In this document: one piece after another, positions 15,162 to 49,876 of the stretch
How the letters are laid out: each line of letters opens with the position of its first letter
How positions within the stretch are numbered: the stretch's first letter is position 1
Source: an uncultured virus (IMG/VR IMGVR_UViG_3300010391_000110)
Taxonomy: Duplodnaviria > Heunggongvirae > Uroviricota > Caudoviricetes
Length of the DNA stretch: 64,000 nt
Strand: one strand, 5' to 3'
IMG/VR virus record: IMGVR_UViG_3300010391_000110
Notes under the pieces: generated by a model
Told to the model about the DNA's origin: nothing
The model's database searches: none
The model's input: only the letters and a program-made list of their open reading frames with translations
Program-made: the position numbers and the translations under genes

Positions 15162-15425
15162 TCAATCCGCCTTCTTCGCCTGCCCGTTCCCGTTGAAAGG
15201 CAGTTCTTGCTGAGCCTGGGTGCTCGGCTTCTCGTTGACCACGGGAGCCTCGGGCGCGGCTACTCCACGTCGGAGGTCCAGGCGCGGGCAGTTGTGGGCC
15301 GTCGGCTCCGCGTGCGCCTGGCACCACACCAGGTTGCAGCCGCGGCACCATTTGGACCACGGCGCACCGCACTGGGCGGCGCACTTCGCCGCCGGAAAGA
15401 CGGCCGCCGGCTCGCTATGTCTCAC
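15162..15425 (-). CDS. AN1-type Zn-finger-like protein
   Basis: CAAQC...CRGCNLVWCQAH....HNC. Confidence 0.6.
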   Translation of the reverse strand: MRHSEPAAVFPAAKCAAQCGAPWSKWCRGCNLVWCQAHAEPTAHNCPRLDLRRGVAAPEAPVVNEKPSTQAQQELPFNGNGQAKKAD

Positions 15426-35914: not shown

Positions 35915-36274
35915 ATGGAACACATCGACGCCAAGGTATTTGCGCTCATCACACTCGGCACGGCCGTCGCGGTGAGCATCCTGAAGTCGTTCCTGAAGCG
36001 ATTCGTGGACGGGAAGGAGGAGGCCTGGTCCCAGCTCCTTCCGATTGTCTTCACCGTGGCCGCGAAGTGCGGCGGCCTCTTCCAGTCGACGAGCTGGGTG
36101 GACGCGCTCCTCTTCGCGGTCGGCGGCGGCCTGGGCGCGAACATCATCCACGACAAGCTCGGAAGCATCCTCAAGATGGTCAAAGGCCTGCTGGGCGGCG
36201 GCGCCGGCCAGGGCAGTCCCGACGGGGCCGTGAAGCCGCCCGATCCTCCGGCTCCGGGGCCTCCTGCGCAATGA
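35915..36274 (+). CDS. Holin-like three-TM protein
   Basis: SD AGGAGG; three hydrophobic helices. Confidence 0.55.
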   Translation: MEHIDAKVFALITLGTAVAVSILKSFLKRFVDGKEEAWSQLLPIVFTVAAKCGGLFQSTSWVDALLFAVGGGLGANIIHDKLGSILKMVKGLLGGGAGQGSPDGAVKPPDPPAPGPPAQ

Positions 36275-36338
36275 CGGACATCCGGATTCCAGGTCCCGCC
36301 TCCAAGACGTGCCGTGCCGGGAGGGGGCACGTTTGAGC

Positions 36339-36368
36339 GTGACATCCTGGCCTCGTCCATCCTATAAT
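36339..36368 (+). promoter_or_regulatory. Putative sigma70 promoter GTGACA-N18-TATAAT
   Basis: Perfect -10 box in a GC-rich intergenic gap. Confidence 0.55.
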
Positions 36369-36400
36369 CCCATGGACTGGATCGGAAGACGGGAGGCGTC

Positions 36401-42464: not shown

Positions 42465-42830
42465 GTGAACTTCACCATGATCCCCGTCGCGCCGACTCTG
42501 GACGCGGCGCAGCAGGCCAGGCTGGACGGCGTCGTCCAGGCGGCGCGAGAGCTCATCTCCTTCTCGGACGCGGACCCGGCCCTGGCGGCCCGCGCCGGCG
42601 TCGAGGTGCTCGCGCTCGAGGCGAAGATGGCGCTTCAGGGATCAAGGCTCGGGGGAGGATCGATCGACGCCTACGAGCGCCTGGACGGCATCGTCGCGCT
42701 GGCGGGAAACCGGATCGGGGAATGCGTGGCGGCCATGGACCGCGAGATGTCCGGCAGTCCCGTCGAGCGCCTGAGCAGGATCATCGGCCTGGCCGGAGGG
42801 GCCATCGGGGTCATCCGCAGCATCTTTTAA
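42465..42830 (+). CDS. Hypothetical protein with hydrophobic C-terminus
   Basis: 121-aa ORF. Confidence 0.6.
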   Translation: MNFTMIPVAPTLDAAQQARLDGVVQAARELISFSDADPALAARAGVEVLALEAKMALQGSRLGGGSIDAYERLDGIVALAGNRIGECVAAMDREMSGSPVERLSRIIGLAGGAIGVIRSIF

Positions 42831-42847
42831 CGTCGAGAGGAAAGCTC

Positions 42848-43660
42848 ATGAACCATTCGCTGGGTTGAGGGATGAAGGTGAACCTCCGTTCGTCGAACGG
42901 AGTCGCGCCCCGTCAGGCCGCCCCGGAAGAGGAGCATCCGCGCTCGCTCGGCTGAGGGGGCGGCGGCGCGTTCGTCGCGCCTCCTCCGTCGGAGGAGAGA
43001 CAGTCCCTCCCGCCCGGCTACACCGCGGCCATCCGCGGGAGCGTGCCGGCGCAGCAGGTCGCCCGGCCGGTCTCCGGACGTCCCGGGGGTTTTCAGATCG
43101 GATCGCCCGGCCCGCGCTTCGTCCCGACCGCGCACGAGAAGGGGTTCCGTCCACTGCTCATGGGCGGCGTCCTCGGGCAGGTGCGGCTCGCCCAGCCCGG
43201 CCAGCAGTCCAGGCCGATCCTGGGGCAGGCCACGACGACGGTGACGCCCACGACGGAACCCGTCGAGTCGCAGCCGGTCGGGCAGCCCAAGAAACTCCCC
43301 GCCACCGAGGCGCAGGCGGGTCAGGGTCAGGAATCCAACTGGCGCCGGAAGGCCTGGGGGCATTTCCGCCGCATGGATGCCGCCGAGATGGCGGTCTACC
43401 TGCATGGCATCGAAGAGCGCATGGACCAGGTCAAGGTCCCCCGCGGCATCGTCGAGCAGATCCGGAAGCGCCTGGAGAGCTTCGCCACGACGGCGAAGAC
43501 CGACGCCGAGGCGATCACCATCGACGAACAGGAGGTCGCGGCGCTCGACAACGCCATCATGTTCCTCGAACAGACCGAGGCGGCGCAGGGGCCGAATCTC
43601 GGCGCCATCGCGGCGGCGGTGGCGGGTCTCGGCCTTCTGACGGCGGTGCTGGTGGCGTGA
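42848..43660 (+). CDS. TM-anchored protein with two in-frame TGA codons (candidate double selenoprotein)
   Basis: SD GAGG 7 nt before ATG 42848; MNHSLG*GMKV...PRSLG*GGGG... continues in frame into ORF 43043..43660. Confidence 0.7.
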
Positions 43661-43995
43661 TGATGCGGATCGAGAAGCCGTCCGGATTCTCTCCCGCCCG
43701 CCAGTTCGCGCTCCGTCCGGTTGTGCCCGCGCCCCGTCCGGTTGTGCCCGCGCCCGCGCCACGCCGGCTGGAGGCCTCGCACCCCGTCCTCGCCCAGGCC
43801 GTCCTGGCCGATCCGGAGCTTCGCGAGATCGGGGGGTTCCTGTCCGAGGCCCGGGAGCAGCTCGCCGCGATCGAGCGCAGCTACGTGAACCTGGCCATCG
43901 CCCTCGGGCAGGCCGAGGCCGACCTGGCCGTGGCACAGGCCCGAGCGACCGTCGAGATGTACGAGGCCGCCTACGTCCGGGCGGGAGGAGCGTAA
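43660..43995 (+). CDS. Leader-bearing coiled-coil protein
   Basis: TGATG overlap; 21-bp tandem duplication encoding RPVVPAP twice. Confidence 0.65.
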   Translation: MMRIEKPSGFSPARQFALRPVVPAPRPVVPAPAPRRLEASHPVLAQAVLADPELREIGGFLSEAREQLAAIERSYVNLAIALGQAEADLAVAQARATVEMYEAAYVRAGGA

Positions 43996-43997
43996 CC

Positions 43998-44291
43998 GTG
44001 AAGATCCGCGTCACCGGCTGAGAACTGTCCGGACTCGTCAGGCCCGTCGGGCCCGTCACGATCGAGAAGACCAAGGTGGTCCAGAAGGACGTCCTCGTCG
44101 CCAAACTCTCCGGGGCGGCGCAGGGTACGATTGCTGTTGTGCGCGACGCCAAGCACAACTATCATGTGGTGGCTCCGAAGGAGCTCGGAGGAACGCGGGC
44201 CGTTCCCGCGGATTCCCTCACCGACTGTCTGCATCAGGCGGTTTACGAGATATCGGAAGCGAAGAAGAGCCGAGGAGGTCGGAAGCGATGA
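43998..44291 (+). CDS. Small protein with in-frame TGA at codon 8 (candidate selenoprotein)
   Basis: SD GGAGGAG, GTG 43998; MKIRVTG*ELSG... is in frame with ORF 44076..44291. Confidence 0.7.
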
Positions 44292-44758
44292 ACGCAACGG
44301 GATTCCCGGTCCAGTTCCCCACGGCCCCGTCGATGCCTCAGGTGCGGCTGGCGCAGCCGTGGGCCCCGGCGCGGCGTCAGCAGCCCCTGGCCGTCCGCGC
44401 GACGCGCCCCGTGGTTCCGACCCTGGGCGGCTCCAGGGTGGGGCAGACCACCGCGCAGCTGTGGGCTCGCGGGTCGGACATCAGCTTCTCGATCCTGACG
44501 GGCGTCGCCGCCATCGTGAGCGGCATCGCGCTCGTCGTGAACTTCGGGAAGGGCGACCCCGCCATTCCGCCGCGCATCGTGCCCGGCATGCCGCCCGTCC
44601 CAGGACGCTCGGCGACCTCCGGGAAGCCGATGTGGTACGTGATCGGCGGGCTGATCTCGGTCCTGGGGGCCGCGAACATCTGGTCGAGCATCAACCGGGC
44701 CTCGGCGATCCAGGCGGCATCGGCGCCGCCGGCCGCTGCGCCGCCGTCGGGGGGCTAG
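44288..44758 (+). CDS. Leader-bearing two-TM protein
   Basis: MPQVRLAQPWAPA...SRVGQ leader. Confidence 0.7.
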   Translation: MNATGFPVQFPTAPSMPQVRLAQPWAPARRQQPLAVRATRPVVPTLGGSRVGQTTAQLWARGSDISFSILTGVAAIVSGIALVVNFGKGDPAIPPRIVPGMPPVPGRSATSGKPMWYVIGGLISVLGAANIWSSINRASAIQAASAPPAAAPPSGG

Positions 44759-44793
44759 GCCTTTCGGACAGACAGACGAGGAGGACTCAAGCA

Positions 44794-45138
44794 ATGCAAG
44801 CCATCTCCTTTCCGGCCACCTCGATGCCCGGCCGGTGGCGGCCGGACCACCAGGTCGACGCCGCCCTGCACGGGACGTGGACGCCCGCGCAGCGCCAGGC
44901 GTGGGCGGTCGCCCGGAGCCACGCGCTCCAGGGGCGCCTCTCCCAGGCTTCGACCGCGGCGGTCGAGACGCCCACCGAGCTCATGATCTCGGTGTCGGCG
45001 GCCTTGGCCGCGCTCTTCGGAGGCCTGTCGCTGGCCTTCGGCGCGCCGAGGGGCGCACCCACGCTCACGTGGGTGGGCATCCTGGCGGCCACGGTCGGCG
45101 GCTTGAAGCTCCTGCAGACGGGCTCCAAGCTCGCGTAG
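44794..45138 (+). CDS. Leader-bearing two-TM protein
   Basis: SD GAGGAGG; WTPA...GRLSQ leader. Confidence 0.65.
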   Translation: MQAISFPATSMPGRWRPDHQVDAALHGTWTPAQRQAWAVARSHALQGRLSQASTAAVETPTELMISVSAALAALFGGLSLAFGAPRGAPTLTWVGILAATVGGLKLLQTGSKLA

Positions 45139-45146
45139 GAGGCGGC

Positions 45147-45458
45147 GTGAAAGTGGACAACCCTGCGGTGATGCTCTCGGCCCGTCCGCCCATGGCGAGG
45201 CCGTGGAAGCCCGCTCCGTTCCGGCAGGGACCGTCTCCGTTCAGCAGGAGCCTGGCCGGGGCGTCCGTAGGGCAGCCGTCGAAAGGGACGCTCTTCGACG
45301 ACCCCTTCGTGGCCCTTCTCCTGAGCGGCGCTTCGACGGTCCTTGCGGCCATCAGCACGGTCAAGCTGGAGGGCGCCGCGCGCATCCTGGCGTGGGCGGT
45401 CATGATCGGGGCCGGCACGCAGACGCTCGTCAGCGGGGTGCGCTATCTCCGGTCCTAG
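45147..45458 (+). CDS. Leader-bearing two-TM protein
   Basis: SD AGGAGG; WKPAPF...SVGQ leader. Confidence 0.65.
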   Translation: MKVDNPAVMLSARPPMARPWKPAPFRQGPSPFSRSLAGASVGQPSKGTLFDDPFVALLLSGASTVLAAISTVKLEGAARILAWAVMIGAGTQTLVSGVRYLRS

Positions 45459-45470
45459 TCGGGAGCTGCT

Positions 45471-45722
45471 ATGAAGATGCGGTTCAGCGAACTGGCGCCG
45501 GGCTCCTGTTTCACGCGTGGCAGCCGCGGTGGCGTCCGGAAGAAGCTGCCGGACGGACGGGTTGTGGGCGTGTCGGATGTGGGAAAACCAAGGACTCGAG
45601 GCATGAAGGGCGACCCGGAAGTGAACGACGTCTCGTGCCCCCTCAACCTGCTCGGCGTCGGACTCAGGAAAAATCCGGCCGCCGTGATCGAGATCGGATC
45701 CGTCGTTCGCCGATGCCGGTGA
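45471..45722 (+). CDS. Small basic protein
   Basis: 83 aa, R/K-rich. Confidence 0.55.
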   Translation: MKMRFSELAPGSCFTRGSRGGVRKKLPDGRVVGVSDVGKPRTRGMKGDPEVNDVSCPLNLLGVGLRKNPAAVIEIGSVVRRCR

Positions 45723-45732
45723 GAGGTGGCGA

Positions 45733-46146
45733 ATGGCCGTCGAACTGATCGAACTCGGAGCCCGGCGCGGGAAGATCCTGCGTAAAGGGTACACGCGGAA
45801 GGGCGGGAAGCGCGTCAAGCAGACGTACGTGAAAGACACTGGCAAGCCCGGCAAGACGCCCAAGTCGAAACGCGTGCTCCCGCCCATCAAGCCGGGCACC
45901 CTAGCCTGCGAAGGCGACGCCTGGAGGCACGGCGACGCGCCCGAGAAGCGGATGCGGGTCCTGCGGTGCATCATCGTCAGCCGGCACGTCCCGTGCGTGA
46001 CAGTCATCCGGGACCTGAACGTCGTGGCCAACTATTCGGAGCGGACGTCCCCGGCCACACACAAGGCCGCTCGAGAAGATATGGAACGCCTCCGGATGCA
46101 GGGCGTCTGTCTCAGGAGCAGATCGAACGGACAGGCGGCTCCTTGA
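45733..46146 (+). CDS. Basic protein resembling an NCLDV family (DUF5771-like)
   Basis: RKGYTRK...KDTGKPGK...LPPIKPGTL...VIRDLNVVANYSERTSP; similarity recalled from memory. Confidence 0.5.
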   Translation: MAVELIELGARRGKILRKGYTRKGGKRVKQTYVKDTGKPGKTPKSKRVLPPIKPGTLACEGDAWRHGDAPEKRMRVLRCIIVSRHVPCVTVIRDLNVVANYSERTSPATHKAAREDMERLRMQGVCLRSRSNGQAAP

Positions 46147-46179
46147 TCCGCCGCTGAACCGGAGAAGGAGGCGTGGTCC

Positions 46180-47130
46180 TTGTCGCTGTCGATGCTCGCC
46201 CAGACCCAGAGGTCAGGCCTCGCCCCCGCAGGATCCGGCCGCACGGCCGTCCTGTCCCGGGCCGAAGCCGAGATGATGGTCCGCATCGTCAGGGCGGTCT
46301 CTGAATTCGCCACAGGCTTCCCGGTCGAGTTCCACGCGTACTGCCCGGTTGCCCGTTGGGAGCCCATCCTGGCGGCCGCCGCCCAGGCGGTCGGGCAGAT
46401 CGAGACCCAGCTTGCGTCGGCCGCCAAGACCATCGTCGTTCCGCTGGACCTCCTCATGTCCATCGTCGACCTCGAGGAGTGCGTGTCCGGCGCGCGTGAC
46501 GCGCGGCTTTCGAACGGGAAGGTGGCCCTCATCATCGCGACCGTCGGCGTTATCGGGCAGAGTTTTTTCGGGCTGACCTATCTGGCGACCCCGGCGTACA
46601 TCATCGCGCTGGCGATCTCGCTTGGTCGGCCGCTCCTCCAGCTCGTCAAAGGGGAGCCCGCGGCGCCCTTCGTCCCGGACACGGTTCCCGGCGCCAGGAT
46701 CACCGGGCTTTCCGGAGGCGGCTGCTCGCCGGCGCCGTCGCTCGGGCATCACACGAGCAAGGCCAAGGTGATCGAGCGCGTGATCGTCTCCCCGGAACGC
46801 CGCCTCCAGAGATTCCACTGGGGGAGCGTCACGCCGATGACCCTCTCCGGACAGGCCGGGACGTGCCTGGTCAAGGGCGAGTGGCGCGTCCGGGTCGAGG
46901 GCTGGGGCGACGACCGGATCACCCTCACCGACGGGTGGGAGTTCGCGCAGCGCGACCAGTGCTTCGACGCCAGGAATGAGATCTCCGTGCGCGAACCCTG
47001 CGGGGTTCCCGCGCGGGATACGGGATTCGGCGATATTCAGGTATACTCAGGGCATGAGAAGAGCATCTGGGCCGAGTACGTGGGCCCGTTCACCGAAGGC
47101 ACCTGCCGCGTGGCGGGGCCCTTCGGCTGA
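46180..47130 (+). CDS. Membrane protein with Cys-rich C-terminal domain; may extend through TGA to 47244
   Basis: SD AAGGAGG, TTG start; two TM helices. Confidence 0.65.
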   Translation: MSLSMLAQTQRSGLAPAGSGRTAVLSRAEAEMMVRIVRAVSEFATGFPVEFHAYCPVARWEPILAAAAQAVGQIETQLASAAKTIVVPLDLLMSIVDLEECVSGARDARLSNGKVALIIATVGVIGQSFFGLTYLATPAYIIALAISLGRPLLQLVKGEPAAPFVPDTVPGARITGLSGGGCSPAPSLGHHTSKAKVIERVIVSPERRLQRFHWGSVTPMTLSGQAGTCLVKGEWRVRVEGWGDDRITLTDGWEFAQRDQCFDARNEISVREPCGVPARDTGFGDIQVYSGHEKSIWAEYVGPFTEGTCRVAGPFG

Positions 47131-47240
47131 ACCGGCGACGCCCAGGAGCATGCCGTCATGGACGGCGGCATGAGCCTCCCCGGAGGGGACGGCGCGTATA
47201 TCCTGTACGACGCGGACGGCAACGTCGTCGAGGAGTCGCC

Positions 47241-47759
47241 ATGAAACGGAAGGACGCCCTAGCCGACAGGCTGATCGCCGGGACATCCGACGCGGCGCTG
47301 CGCCTCGCGTGGTGGCCCCGGCACAGCGCCATGGTCGGACTCTACATCGACAGCATGGACCAGGCCCAGCCCTTCAAGGGCCGCGACGTCATGTTCCACG
47401 CGGCCAAGTACTGGGACGCCCTCGTCCTGGACGCTTCCGGGCTGATGAGCGAGCACACGGCGCTCGAGATCGCCCTCGTCGATGCCGTGGCGGTCAAGGA
47501 CACGTCCGCCGTGGACCGCGTGAGCGAGCTGCTGAGCGCCAACATCCAGCAGCAGCAGGCCATGTACGTCGCCAGGATCCCGGAGTTCCCGGCCGGCCGA
47601 TTCTCGGAACTCATACGCGAACATGCGCGCCTCTTCTTCGAGACGCTGGCCAGCAAGACGGCCGGGGATGTCAGGAAGCGCTTGCTGTGCGATGCCAAAA
47701 GAGGGCACAATGCCGTATCTCTCGGGGCGTTTATGACCGAATGGGTGACGGGGAACTGA
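47241..47759 (+). CDS. Helical hypothetical protein
   Basis: SD GAGGAG; 172 aa. Confidence 0.65.
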   Translation: MKRKDALADRLIAGTSDAALRLAWWPRHSAMVGLYIDSMDQAQPFKGRDVMFHAAKYWDALVLDASGLMSEHTALEIALVDAVAVKDTSAVDRVSELLSANIQQQQAMYVARIPEFPAGRFSELIREHARLFFETLASKTAGDVRKRLLCDAKRGHNAVSLGAFMTEWVTGN

Positions 47760-48568
47760 TGGAGCACAACGCCGCGTGCCCGCCGAATGCGCCGGTCGCC
47801 CTCGCGGACGGCAAGCTCATCATGCCGGACGACCAGGTGACGCTGGCCGATCTCTGCGAGCTCATCCCGCTCATCCTGGAGACCATGGCCGCAGCGCAGG
47901 GCGGCGGAGGAGGGGGCGCGGGCCTTCTCGTGCCCGGCGCCCAGGTCCCGATCGCCGGCGCGCCCATGCTCGGACCTTTCGGGACGCCGGCGCTGCCTTC
48001 GAACACGAGCCCGTTCGGTCCCCCGAAAGGGAGCGCCATCGCCGCTTCCGGGGGCGGCGGAGGTTTCGGGGGCGGGGGCGGTGGAGGCGGCCGCGGCGCA
48101 CGCGGCCTGCAGGGGCCTGCCGGGCCGGCGGGCGCGCCCGGACCCGGCACGATCGTGCCCATGATCAAAACCGACGGGAACTTCACGGTCGCGTCCGTTT
48201 CTCCGTTCCTTCCCATCCCGGGCACCCAGAAGAAGATCACGCTCCTGGAGGCCGGGCCCGCCATCTTCCTGATTCAGGGGGTCTTCGGAGGCAACTCGAT
48301 AGCGGGCGTGTCGAACGGTCAGATCGGGCTCCGGGTGGACGGCACCGATTACCCGCTCACGGCGAACCTGATCCACACGTTCGTGGGTGGCGTCGGCGAG
48401 TTCCTCGCGTCGGCGACCGCGAACTTTCCGATCATGCTGGCCGCCGGAGAGCATGACGTGGAGCTCATCGTGCGCGGAGACTCGTCGCTCGGAGCGCCGA
48501 CCGGACTGCCCGTCGTGGTCCAGGCGACGCCGGCGATCCCGCTCGCGCTCACGATCATCCACAAGTAG
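47759..48568 (+). CDS. Protein with short collagen-like (GXY) stalk and C-terminal beta domain, candidate short spike
   Basis: TGATG overlap; GARGLQGPAGPAGAPGPG. Confidence 0.65.
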   Translation: MEHNAACPPNAPVALADGKLIMPDDQVTLADLCELIPLILETMAAAQGGGGGGAGLLVPGAQVPIAGAPMLGPFGTPALPSNTSPFGPPKGSAIAASGGGGGFGGGGGGGGRGARGLQGPAGPAGAPGPGTIVPMIKTDGNFTVASVSPFLPIPGTQKKITLLEAGPAIFLIQGVFGGNSIAGVSNGQIGLRVDGTDYPLTANLIHTFVGGVGEFLASATANFPIMLAAGEHDVELIVRGDSSLGAPTGLPVVVQATPAIPLALTIIHK

Positions 48569-48570
48569 GC

Positions 48571-49233
48571 ATGAACACCTGGACGCCCGCTCCCTACCGA
48601 GCGCGCCTGGGGCAGACGTCGTTCCAGAAGACGGCCCAAGCCATCGTCGAGGAGGCCGAACCCAAGCTGCGCCGGGTGATCGCCGACGAGCGGGGGCGCA
48701 TCGTGGACGCGGCTGATTCGGCACTGCCTTTTCTCGGCCTCTCCGCGGCCGCCTATCTCGGGACCGCCTACCTTGCCCCGGACGGCGTCATGAAGCCGGT
48801 CGGGTACGGTGCGTCCGCCGTTCTCCTGGCCGTCGGAATCTTGCGCGGCCTAGCGATGATGGACCAGGAGGAAGAGGCCGCTCCGGCCGCCCCGGAACCC
48901 AAGACGGGGCTCATCGGAGACGTGATCGGGACGCTCGTCGACCCCGCCAGCCGGAAGATGGCGACGGCGATCGTCGCGGAGGCCGTGCCCGCCGTCCAGG
49001 GGATCCTCGTCGACGAGCGCGCGTTGGTTGCCGACGCGGTCCAGACTGCGGTGCCTTTCATCGCAGTCGCTGTTGCAGTCTTCCTCGGAACGGCGTATCT
49101 TGTACCCGAGACGATGCCGATGGCGAAGATGGGCGGATACCTGGCGGCCGCCGGCGGGGGCCTGTTCGGCCTCTACCGCGGCGCCGAAAAGGTGCGCGGC
49201 GAATCGGCACCCCCACAGGAGGTGCGCGCGTGA
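48571..49233 (+). CDS. Leader-bearing four-TM protein with internal duplication
   Basis: MNTWTPAPYRARLGQ; AIV.EA.P....I..DER....DA...A.PF......LGTAYL.P repeated twice. Confidence 0.75.
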   Translation: MNTWTPAPYRARLGQTSFQKTAQAIVEEAEPKLRRVIADERGRIVDAADSALPFLGLSAAAYLGTAYLAPDGVMKPVGYGASAVLLAVGILRGLAMMDQEEEAAPAAPEPKTGLIGDVIGTLVDPASRKMATAIVAEAVPAVQGILVDERALVADAVQTAVPFIAVAVAVFLGTAYLVPETMPMAKMGGYLAAAGGGLFGLYRGAEKVRGESAPPQEVRA

Positions 49234-49490
49234 GATCCACGTTTTCCATGGCTCCATGCGCGCCGTCCGGGATGGGCGTGCGCCGCGCAACGCTCGGCCA
49301 GCAGTGACCTACTGACGGCGGAGGGGCCGTGTGCCCCACAGGTGACGTACCGCCGACCGGAGGCACGGTGCCGCCAACCGGAGGCACGGAGCCGACCGGA
49401 ACGCAGCCTTCGGCGCCGGCGGGAATCCCCGTCGTCCCGATCGCCATCGGCGTTGGCGCGATCGCGCTCCTGGCGGCCATCGCTTCTTGA
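49230..49490 (+). CDS. 86-aa TM-anchored protein with in-frame TGA (candidate selenoprotein; not in ORF track)
   Basis: SD AGGAGGT, GTGA overlap; ...RRATLGQQ*PTDGGGAVCPTGD...IPVVPIAIGVGAIALLAAIAS. Confidence 0.75.
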
Positions 49491-49504
49491 TCGGAGGTCG
49501 GTCC

Positions 49505-49876
49505 ATGGCGTCGCTGCGCAGATTCGAACCCGCTGGATACGGACCCGTTCACCTCGGCGTCGTTGAAGCCTGGTGGAGTTCGGGCGGCGTCGTAGCGATG
49601 GATCCAGGGCCGGCACTTGAGCCGCCCGTGCCCGTGGCGTATTCCCATGCTCCGTACCCGACGCGCGGCATCTCCCGCACTCCAGTCACCACGCGGCCGG
49701 TCTGCGCCTGCAAGTTCTTCGGCTTGGGGCAGGGCGGCTGCGCCACGCCGGTGGAGGGCGCTCCCGTAGTCGCGGGAGGCGGATCCGCCCCGGCATCGGG
49801 GCCGTCGACGCTGACCATTGTCGGCGGCGTCGGGGTCCTCGGGGTGCTTGGCCTGCTGGCGGCGGGCGTGATCTAG
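49505..49876 (+). CDS. Leader-bearing, C-terminally TM-anchored protein
   Basis: SD GGAGGT; CACKFFGLGQGGC; TM end. Confidence 0.7.
   Translation: MASLRRFEPAGYGPVHLGVVEAWWSSGGVVAMDPGPALEPPVPVAYSHAPYPTRGISRTPVTTRPVCACKFFGLGQGGCATPVEGAPVVAGGGSAPASGPSTLTIVGGVGVLGVLGLLAAGVI

Follow-up and report, generated by a model that had tools for sequence, protein, structure and literature searches.

The 64-kb stretch analyzed here (hereafter, the window) belongs to a phage-like contig of 78.4 kb that derives from a sediment metagenome (uncultured virus, Caudoviricetes; IMG/VR record IMGVR_UViG_3300010391_000110), with a G+C content of 62%–71%. We focus on four plus-strand genes, called A, B, D, and C in their order along the DNA, which are interrupted by in-frame TGA codons at 42866–8, 42953–5, 44019–21, 47128–30, and 49305–7. 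Each TGA shares its reading frame with the open reading frame (ORF) downstream or, for 47128, with the 37 codons that follow. An earlier reading of the sequence alone (the original prediction) had proposed that these TGAs encode selenocysteine (Sec). All five are present and in frame as it described, and a Gly codon precedes four of the five, as it also claimed (GGT, GGC, GGC, GGC, and CAG, in order). The read-through genes and their TGAs, with U marking the TGA, are listed below.

42848–43660, plus strand: gene A, read through both TGAs, 270 aa; ATG 42848 lies 17 nt behind the previous stop; C-terminal membrane anchor; ends at TGA 43658
42866–42868, plus strand: gene A TGA, possible Sec codon (HSLG-U-GMK)
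42953–42955, plus strand: gene A TGA, probable Sec codon (RSLG-U-GGGG)
43998–44291, plus strand: gene B, TGA 44019 read through, 97 aa; GTG start 2 nt behind the previous stop, Shine-Dalgarno sequence GGGAGGAG
44019–44021, plus strand: gene B in-frame TGA (VKIRVTG-U-ELSGLVRP), facing the second Cys of a CxC motif
46180–47244, plus strand: gene D, TGA 47128 read through, about 353 aa; start at TTG 46180 or ATG 46192
47128–47130, plus strand: gene D in-frame TGA, best-supported Sec codon (AGPFG-U-TGD)
49248–49490, plus strand: gene C, candidate read-through form, 80 aa, C-terminal membrane anchor
49305–49307, plus strand: gene C in-frame TGA (ATLGQQ-U-PTD)

In gene D, TGA 47128 is the called stop of the gene that begins at 46180, and the frame stays open for 37 codons beyond it, to a terminal TGA at 47242 that overlaps the ATG of the next gene (ATGA). 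A search with the read-through protein (P0005) retrieved 66 family proteins, the window's own call among them; gene D family counts refer to cluster representatives throughout. All 66 contain AGPF[GC]. At the TGA column, 31 have Cys, after which a conserved tail follows (consensus C-TGD..HA.ED.G...DG.Y.IFD..G.VV), 35, including the window's own entry, end one residue before the column, and none does otherwise. The in-frame sequence that follows the window TGA (TGDAQEHAVMDGGMSLPGGDGAYILYDADGNVVEESP) matches the tail found after Cys in the 31 longer members. The original prediction had listed this site as "possibly a fifth" and called for a comparison of the TGAs with homologs; Cys occupies the column in 31 of 31 proteins that cover it, and an alignment of 35 chosen homologs places Cys under the window TGA in all 24 long ones.

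These patterns bear on the explanation that the TGAs are ordinary stops followed by intergenic spacers, with genes starting at GTG 43043, GTG 44076, and GTG 49329 and gene D ending at 47130. Public gene calls agree with it (P0002, 205 aa; P0007, 71 aa; P0068, 312 aa), the Shine-Dalgarno sequence of GTG 49329 fits it, and TGA outnumbers the other stop triplets of this 67% G+C genome, whatever the frame (539 of 816 open-context stop triplets). However, ordinary stops do not account for protein sequence that is conserved for 37 codons after the D stop and, in A and B, for 22 and 18 codons ahead of the first start after the TGA, nor for a stop column that is an invariant Cys in two unrelated families. 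We consider this explanation very unlikely.

Decay or fission would instead involve Cys-to-stop mutations in a defective element, or a split of gene D with its tail translated from ATG 47158. A lone Cys-to-stop event is unremarkable because a Cys codon (TGC or TGT) is one substitution from TGA, and ATG 47158, which AGGAG precedes by 9 nt, might conceivably be the start of a distinct 28-aa peptide whose ORF ends in the ATGA overlap. However, the stop column is common to 35 of the 66 D representatives, in clades at ~50% identity, and the nine codons between TGA 47128 and ATG 47158 are still family-like (T-G-D..E-H-A; six of nine residues identical to the family tail in a comparison with P0096). 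In a FastTree phylogeny of 64 of the 66 proteins (two with cores shorter than 250 aa were omitted), stop-forms occupy large, deep clades, to ~50% identity, and Cys-forms are nested within these clades at no fewer than four places. We therefore interpret the stop state of D as old and maintained, not as a recent nonsense mutation. In addition, there are no frameshifts and no other stops, three neighboring genes show the same pattern, always with TGA, and gene B is under purifying selection, with third-codon-position variation in a related strain. Decay or fission accordingly has a very small probability.

An AlphaFold model of D on the family alignment had a mean predicted local distance difference test (pLDDT) score of 84, with scores of 94–97 at residues 300–350. 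In this predicted structure, two central helices that are membrane-spanning in appearance are accompanied by a beta-rich C-terminal domain, within which the tail belongs. The structure had no match at E 0.001 or better in PDB and BFVD (Foldseek), and a wide VIA-align search gave generic helical-bundle matches only (Z ≤7.1). We are highly confident that UGA 47128 is decoded. Separately, we note that a Cys eight residues before the column (window codon 47104–47106) is present in 24 of 35 stop-forms, 0 of 27 GPFG-C forms, and 3 of 4 GPFC-C forms. This distribution, which is confounded by phylogeny, hints at a Cys-x7-Sec pair in D.

Gene B is an independent family with the TGA near its start, seven codons downstream of GTG 43998; its terminal stop, TGA 44289, forms an ATGA overlap. 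A search with the read-through protein (P0004) gave 37 homologs. Seven of these extend as far as the TGA column, and every one has Cys there (MK[IF][KR]MC.C.W.GL.RP), as does the 266-kb relative described below. The N-terminus of these Cys-forms is colinear with VKIRVTG, encoded by the seven codons that precede the TGA in the window. The comparison with homologs thus gave the same answer as it did for D. The remaining 30 of the 37 called homologs start 1–26 residues past the column (by family position, 3 at 9, 11 at 10, 4 at 13, 3 at 14, 2 at 17, 1 at 20, 5 at 27, and 1 at 34). Many of these late-starting homologs have "M" at a conserved Leu or Val (e.g., position 13 is "M" in 4 and Leu in 22 others), as gene callers yield when an upstream stop blocks extension. 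Residues 9–26 of gene B (ELSGLVRPVGPVTIEKTK) are conserved across the family, and the 18 codons after the TGA are without ATG, GTG, or TTG. In the related strain (run X3, record 18, 44133–44361), differences fall mostly at third codon positions of the B frame, which shows purifying selection on gene B. The predicted structure of B was poor (mean pLDDT 63.5, with residues 1–15 below 50). Decoding of UGA 44019 is strongly favored by the Cys column and the conserved sequence after it. The C-termini of the B family alternate between ..GGRK[RPSQ] and ..GGC.. (window 44270–44288), so that some members have a C-terminal Cys besides the N-terminal CxC or CxU.

Read-through could also be genuine and involve no Sec, either by a leaky UGA (Trp or Cys inserted) or by termination and re-initiation, with a low dosage of full-length protein as in Qbeta A1. 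Three of the sites lie 7–36 codons from the start, where a short upstream ORF with re-initiation is mechanistically easy, no Sec machinery is seen in the window, and the hairpin evidence given below is not specific. However, dosage control gives no reason for invariant Cys columns in two families. Re-initiation would require CTG 44025 in B, and A has no near-cognate codon in 42956–42977. The D UGA lies 37 codons from the C-terminus, within what is predicted to be a folded domain. We regard read-through of this kind as quite unlikely.

A profile search of viral contigs with the D alignment found a single record (L003, IMG/VR, 266 kb, CheckV 92% complete), in which eight window proteins are matched with their order preserved. 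At the TGA column, D of this relative has TGT (reading GPFGCPMDTRDHAIDDGG) and B has TGC (reading MRWRLCQCEINGLVRP). The gene at A's place, 10 nt behind the upstream gene, is an A-family homolog (hhalign probability 96%, E 2.4e-9) with a 60-aa N-terminal extension; this extension contains GMGCCGY at residues 31–37, with Cys 34–35 to be compared with U36 of the window. Its Cys is suggestive only, but would support Sec at the gene A TGAs. Judged by its codons, the module of this relative is an all-Cys version of the window module. At ~58–84 kb of its 266 kb, the same record (L003–L011; IMG/VR record G002) has a tRNA array of at least 35 genes, none of them tRNA-Sec. A tRNA-Sec candidate in this relative was rejected, as its best match (43.8 bits) fell below the 47-bit cutoff and is a tRNA-Ser. 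Pfam Terminase_6N and HK97 Phage_capsid models had zero matches across the whole 266-kb record.

In gene A, TGA 42866 lies six codons after ATG 42848 and TGA 42953 lies 28 codons further in the same frame, and the context S-L-G-TGA-G is common to both. A HMMER search of 1.84 billion representatives found 24 homologs, 15 of which were aligned. These homologs begin M(M)PPPQEE..PPGYT, equivalent to the window from 42977 onward, seven codons past TGA 42953 and 22 codons before GTG 43043. At least four of the aligned homologs (P0045, P0046, P0047, and P0060) match window residues 44–60 (PPPSEERQSLPPGYT), between TGA 42953 and GTG 43043. Because 42956–43042 has no ATG, GTG, or TTG in any frame, GTG 43043 being the first canonical start, the conserved N-terminus would be made only by reading through 42953. 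Protein conservation at the gene A TGAs is on the downstream side alone; homologs leave both columns uncovered, and no pairing of TGA with Cys was seen at 42866 or 42953. TGA 42866 could alternatively be the stop of a 6-codon upstream ORF, with a restart at GTG 42878. We consider decoding of UGA 42953 fairly likely and put that of UGA 42866 at an even chance.

Gene C is the most tentative member of the set. Its TGA lies 19 codons after ATG 49248, and the alternative is a 53-aa gene from GTG 49329, downstream of the TGA, which has its own Shine-Dalgarno sequence (GGAGGGG). The proper Shine-Dalgarno and start sequences that the original prediction described are seen at ATG 42848 (GAGG 7 nt upstream) and GTG 43998 (GGGAGGAG 7 nt upstream), but ATG 49248 has no visible Shine-Dalgarno. 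Its claim of alignment with Cys in an internal repeat holds only weakly: across the xPTGG repeats of gene C, position x reads U, C, P, P. In the 266-kb relative, the ORF at gene C's position starts MGGGGPFGRQGASLGQWGE, and ASLGQW-G-E shows a short resemblance to ..RRATLGQQ-U-PT of the window. Decoding of UGA 49305 is possible but doubtful.

Each TGA is followed by a hairpin on the same strand.

42884–42902, plus strand: hairpin ctccgttcGUCgaacggag, GUC triloop, 8-bp stem, loop at +24 after 42866; the longest GTC-triloop stem on the window plus strand
42981–42997, plus strand: hairpin ctcctccGUCggaggag, GUC triloop, 7-bp stem, loop at +33 after 42953
44041–44053, plus strand: hairpin ggcccGUCgggcc, GUC triloop, 5-bp stem, loop at +25 after 44019
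47149–47172, plus strand: hairpin CAUGCCGUC/GGCGGCAUG, 9-bp stem, loop AUGGAC, after 47128; GUC at +25 inside the 5' arm
49323–49337, plus strand: hairpin ggggcCGUGUgcccc, 5-bp stem, loop CGUGU, at +21 after 49305; also covers the Shine-Dalgarno sequence and GTG 49329

The original prediction had described loops with GUC or GUG at four sites, 20–32 nt after the TGA. Such loops are present at four sites, but the spacing limit does not hold, since the loop after 42953 is at +33. Across the 30-kb plus-strand arm, three of the ten GTC-triloop hairpins with a stem of ≥5 bp are positioned at +24 to +33 past flagged TGAs, and no GUC-loop hairpin in the arm is stronger than the two after 42866 and 42953. 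Under a looser rule (stem ≥5 bp, loop of 3–8 nt with GU at its start, +12 to +40), four of the five flagged TGAs pass. In the controls, the rule was passed by 5 of 30 ordinary TGA stops; the rate was 9% for 3000 random positions and 12% for 276 TGA triplets. Rfam SECIS (selenocysteine insertion sequence) models, which are eukaryotic, gave no match; 42500–49700 had four chance-level non-SECIS matches only (E up to 5), and no Rfam family matched at gathering score in the whole window. These hairpins may act as SECIS elements, although the hairpins themselves are no proof of function.

Stop codon usage implies that decoding of TGA is local. The 76 called gene stops in the window comprise 31 TGA, 31 TAG, and 14 TAA, with ATGA and GTGA overlaps among the TGA ends; genomes of 62%–71% G+C usually give TGA a larger share. 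Genes A, B, C, and the extended D all terminate in TGA, and we therefore interpret the decoding as site-specific, not as a change of code. This agrees with the original prediction, which had treated TGA as a normal stop elsewhere and proposed site-specific recoding. A whole-code change, with all TGAs translated in the phage or its host (table 4 or 25, or late-gene recoding), would fit the clustering of in-frame TGAs in one late-looking arm, and recoded phages are known. However, such a code would never use TGA as terminator, and here TGA ends 31 of 76 genes, including all four in question, often in ATGA or GTGA overlaps. Furthermore, large genes of the arm are without internal TGA, the TGAs stand opposite Cys and not Trp or Gly, and the window has no suppressor tRNA (no tRNA genes were found in the 64 kb). 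A code change is extremely improbable.

Gene packing is consistent with read-through. Reading through the TGAs removes four gaps of 80–212 nt between 42.8 and 49.3 kb, after which packing is as tight as in the neighbors: starts lie 17, 2, and 14 nt behind previous stops, and D ends in an ATGA overlap. Other gaps of more than 50 nt in the arm contain a mixture of TAA, TAG, and TGA and look non-coding. Elsewhere in the arm, the gene at 35915–36274 ends in TGA and its frame is open for 31 codons more, to a TAG (36272–36370), with no GU-loop hairpin after it; this stop is probably ordinary.

The TGAs are not assembly slips, as they are reproduced in an independent assembly, the Logan assembly of run X1, which may be the source sample. 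There, 42700–49600 falls in a single contig at a depth of ~24 with all five TGA codons identical, which bears on the raw-read check that had been proposed. The window and the X1 assembly differ at two positions only, 43570 (A>G) and 49259 (C>G), neither at a TGA; position 43570 also reads G in small contigs of runs X2 and X3. In runs X2–X4 (6%–7% of sampled words), no TGA site was covered among the matches listed, and no RNA run was among those listed as containing window sequence.

Codon-position G+C provides a further signal of coding. Typical genes of the window have values of ~0.66/0.48/0.88, and the sequences flanking the TGAs have 0.75/0.54/0.82 (42869–42952), 0.72/0.72/0.90 (42956–43042), and 0.61/0.44/0.89 (44022–44075), with periodicity in the frame of the downstream gene. 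The gene D tail (47131–47241) has 0.76/0.43/0.89, like genuine genes. Each flank's signal is weak by itself because the pieces span only 18–37 codons. In a window-wide scan for coding signal on both sides of a stop, 47128 ranked 3 of 816, a scan that is not specific because the remaining picks were mostly adjacent same-frame genes and antisense frames.

These genes lie in a plus-strand arm (25.5–55 kb) with nearly no Pfam or PHROG families, which carries a module of small proteins, most with a membrane anchor. Glycosyltransferase and sugar-epimerase genes are found at its far end, from ~55 kb. The minus-strand part (1–24 kb) contains phage-type replication genes, including GP88, SNF2 helicase, Mom, DUF6011, RNase T-like exonuclease, HNH, D5-like primase, Sak4/AAA_24, and DEAD_2 helicase. 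Within the arm, three consecutive small genes at 44288–45458 (156, 114, and 103 aa) have a common layout, in which one or two hydrophobic helices come after an N-terminus rich in Pro and Arg. They resemble tandem paralogs, each encoding a small membrane protein. The 220-aa protein at 48571–49233 is internally duplicated, with two "IV.EAEP.....I.DER" helices each followed by a hydrophobic hairpin, and its homolog in the 266-kb relative likewise has two halves. Two weak domain matches fell below the cutoff: DUF5771 at 45733–46146 (E 2e-4) and an AN1-type zinc finger at 15162–15425 (E 1.9e-5). The original prediction had proposed membrane or virion proteins, perhaps with diselenide cross-links, but no Pfam or PHROG family points to a virion role, and D had no informative fold match.

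Further searches for the DNA of relatives were largely negative. Searches of viral contigs with D alone, the A alignment, and the B alignment gave zero matches, as did searches of metagenome contigs by protein alignment and degenerate DNA pattern and tblastn searches of GenBank phages with B and D. Genome contigs had no match to gene A and one C-terminal fragment of gene B, on a contig of a Solibacteraceae metagenome-assembled genome (MAG). This fragment (L001 10001–10090 / L002) comprises the last ~26 B residues (..EVPADSLTDCLH..), in frame behind unrelated sequence near the contig end, and could be either a remnant or a chimera of the assembly. The locus is not matched by any other protein of the window and gives no host link. 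D had no matches in 401 genomes of the MAG's phylum, a sample in which absence is not shown. Among called proteins, 34 further D representatives end at the column and 30 B representatives start just after it, and these relatives may carry TGA there as well.

Several observations weigh against Sec decoding. The hairpins are not specific, and weaker as evidence than the original prediction implied, since 5 of 30 ordinary TGA stops have one and the Cys-form B of the 266-kb relative carries a comparable hairpin, at +20, that also passes; this qualifies the comparison with true TGA stops that had been suggested, in which four of five sites pass. The minimum-energy fold after 47128 has no GU in its loop and fails the looser rule, folding energy after the five TGAs is not significantly low (mean vs background, p = 0.058), and the GUC motif was defined after the sites had been inspected. 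None of the 24 gene A homologs found (15 aligned) extends across either TGA column. In the 266-kb relative, Gly faces TGA 42866, by simple offset, and Gly, not Cys, faces TGA 49305 in its sole positional counterpart. The single substitution from Cys codon to TGA and the potential separate start at ATG 47158, both noted above, belong here as well. The TGA and intact downstream parts of the stop-form relatives would follow from the ends and starts of called proteins. Finally, among the 75 ORFs scanned against Pfam and across the 64 kb, there is no selA, selB, or selD and no tRNA-Sec, as the original prediction had said of sel genes in the window.

Weighing these points, we consider it likely, with good confidence, that at least two genes, D and B, have an in-frame UGA decoded as Sec and that probably a third, A, has one or two such UGAs. 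These are very likely phage-encoded selenoproteins in new protein families. We infer that the inserted residue is Sec, not Cys or Trp, and the host would provide the sel machinery. In the mechanism that we propose, translation would begin at the start directly behind the preceding gene, and a hairpin 20–35 nt past the UGA, with G-U at its apex, would recruit host SelB with Sec-tRNA(Sec). Sec would then be inserted where relatives have an essential Cys, and the same mRNAs would terminate at ordinary UGA stops that are without such context. As to function, we can offer only a guess: the CxC/CxU motif in B, together with the Cys-x7-Sec spacing in D, would suit redox chemistry or metal binding at the membrane.

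We lean slightly towards a broader scenario in which large phages of one lineage (78–266 kb) have a conserved membrane-protein module with repeated switching between Cys and Sec. Sec users would make three to four selenoproteins per operon and need host SelB and tRNA-Sec. Selenium supply or host Sec competence may then gate late proteins, and so yield or host range.

If true, selenoproteins would be described here for the first time from a prokaryotic virus. They would constitute at least two new selenoprotein families and extend the known families by membrane proteins without a recognized fold. If confirmed, phages can rely on an optional host translation system, with selenium and sel genes as factors of phage–host compatibility. 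There is also a consequence for annotation: among the protein sets searched, public calls truncate A, B, and D of the window, and 35 of 66 D-family entries halt at the UGA column. The natural Sec and Cys versions of one small operon offer a direct test of the advantage of Sec over Cys.

The window can be compared with several known systems. Stop-codon-recoded phages read TAG or TGA as an amino acid throughout their late genes, usually by a phage suppressor tRNA. The in-frame stop codons of the window are likewise concentrated in one genome arm, but these genes also terminate in TGA, and Cys is the only residue that the in-frame TGA faces. In Qbeta A1, a phage protein is extended by read-through of a leaky UGA, where it does not matter which residue is inserted and no conserved Cys marks the site. 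The window resembles it in having phage proteins extended beyond a UGA and differs in that the UGA falls on a conserved Cys column (D and B).

Bacterial selenoprotein genes with an in-ORF SECIS share several features with D and B: the UGA faces Cys, both sides are conserved, a 3' stem-loop follows, and gene callers truncate the protein. The criteria of PMC1088965 are TGA aligned with Cys in at least two homologs with TGA/Cys pairs in the majority, TGA conserved in at least two sequences, conservation on both sides, and, directly 3' of the TGA, a stable stem-loop whose small apical loop contains a guanosine. By comparison, TGA/Cys pairing is found in D (31 of 31, plus the 266-kb relative) and B (7 of 7, plus the same relative), and both are conserved on either side of the TGA. 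A second TGA-containing sequence for D and B would follow only from where called relatives end or start. Unlike cellular bacterial selenoprotein genes, those of the window lie in a phage module and belong to families without Pfam, PHROG, or PDB relatives, with up to four selenoprotein genes in 6.6 kb and maybe two UGAs in the first 36 codons of one gene.

Full-text literature searching found no report of a naturally phage-encoded selenoprotein. In a marine trace-element survey, the families examined beyond RNR II, plastocyanin, and Cu-Zn SOD, selenoprotein families included, have no or very few viral sequences (PMC9402790). Viral selenoproteins are known from molluscum contagiosum and fowlpox viruses, whose glutathione peroxidases (GPx) are selenoproteins, with the fowlpox SECIS inside the coding region; a recoding review names these two poxvirus genes as the only viral selenoproteins (PMC8310308). 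Like poxvirus GPx as described there, the window genes are virus-encoded and would rely on host Sec machinery. Unlike these captured cellular genes of eukaryotic viruses with a eukaryote-type SECIS, they belong to phage-specific families in a bacterial-type arrangement. The mechanism is the known bacterial one; the novelty lies in a phage using it, in several neighboring genes of new families.

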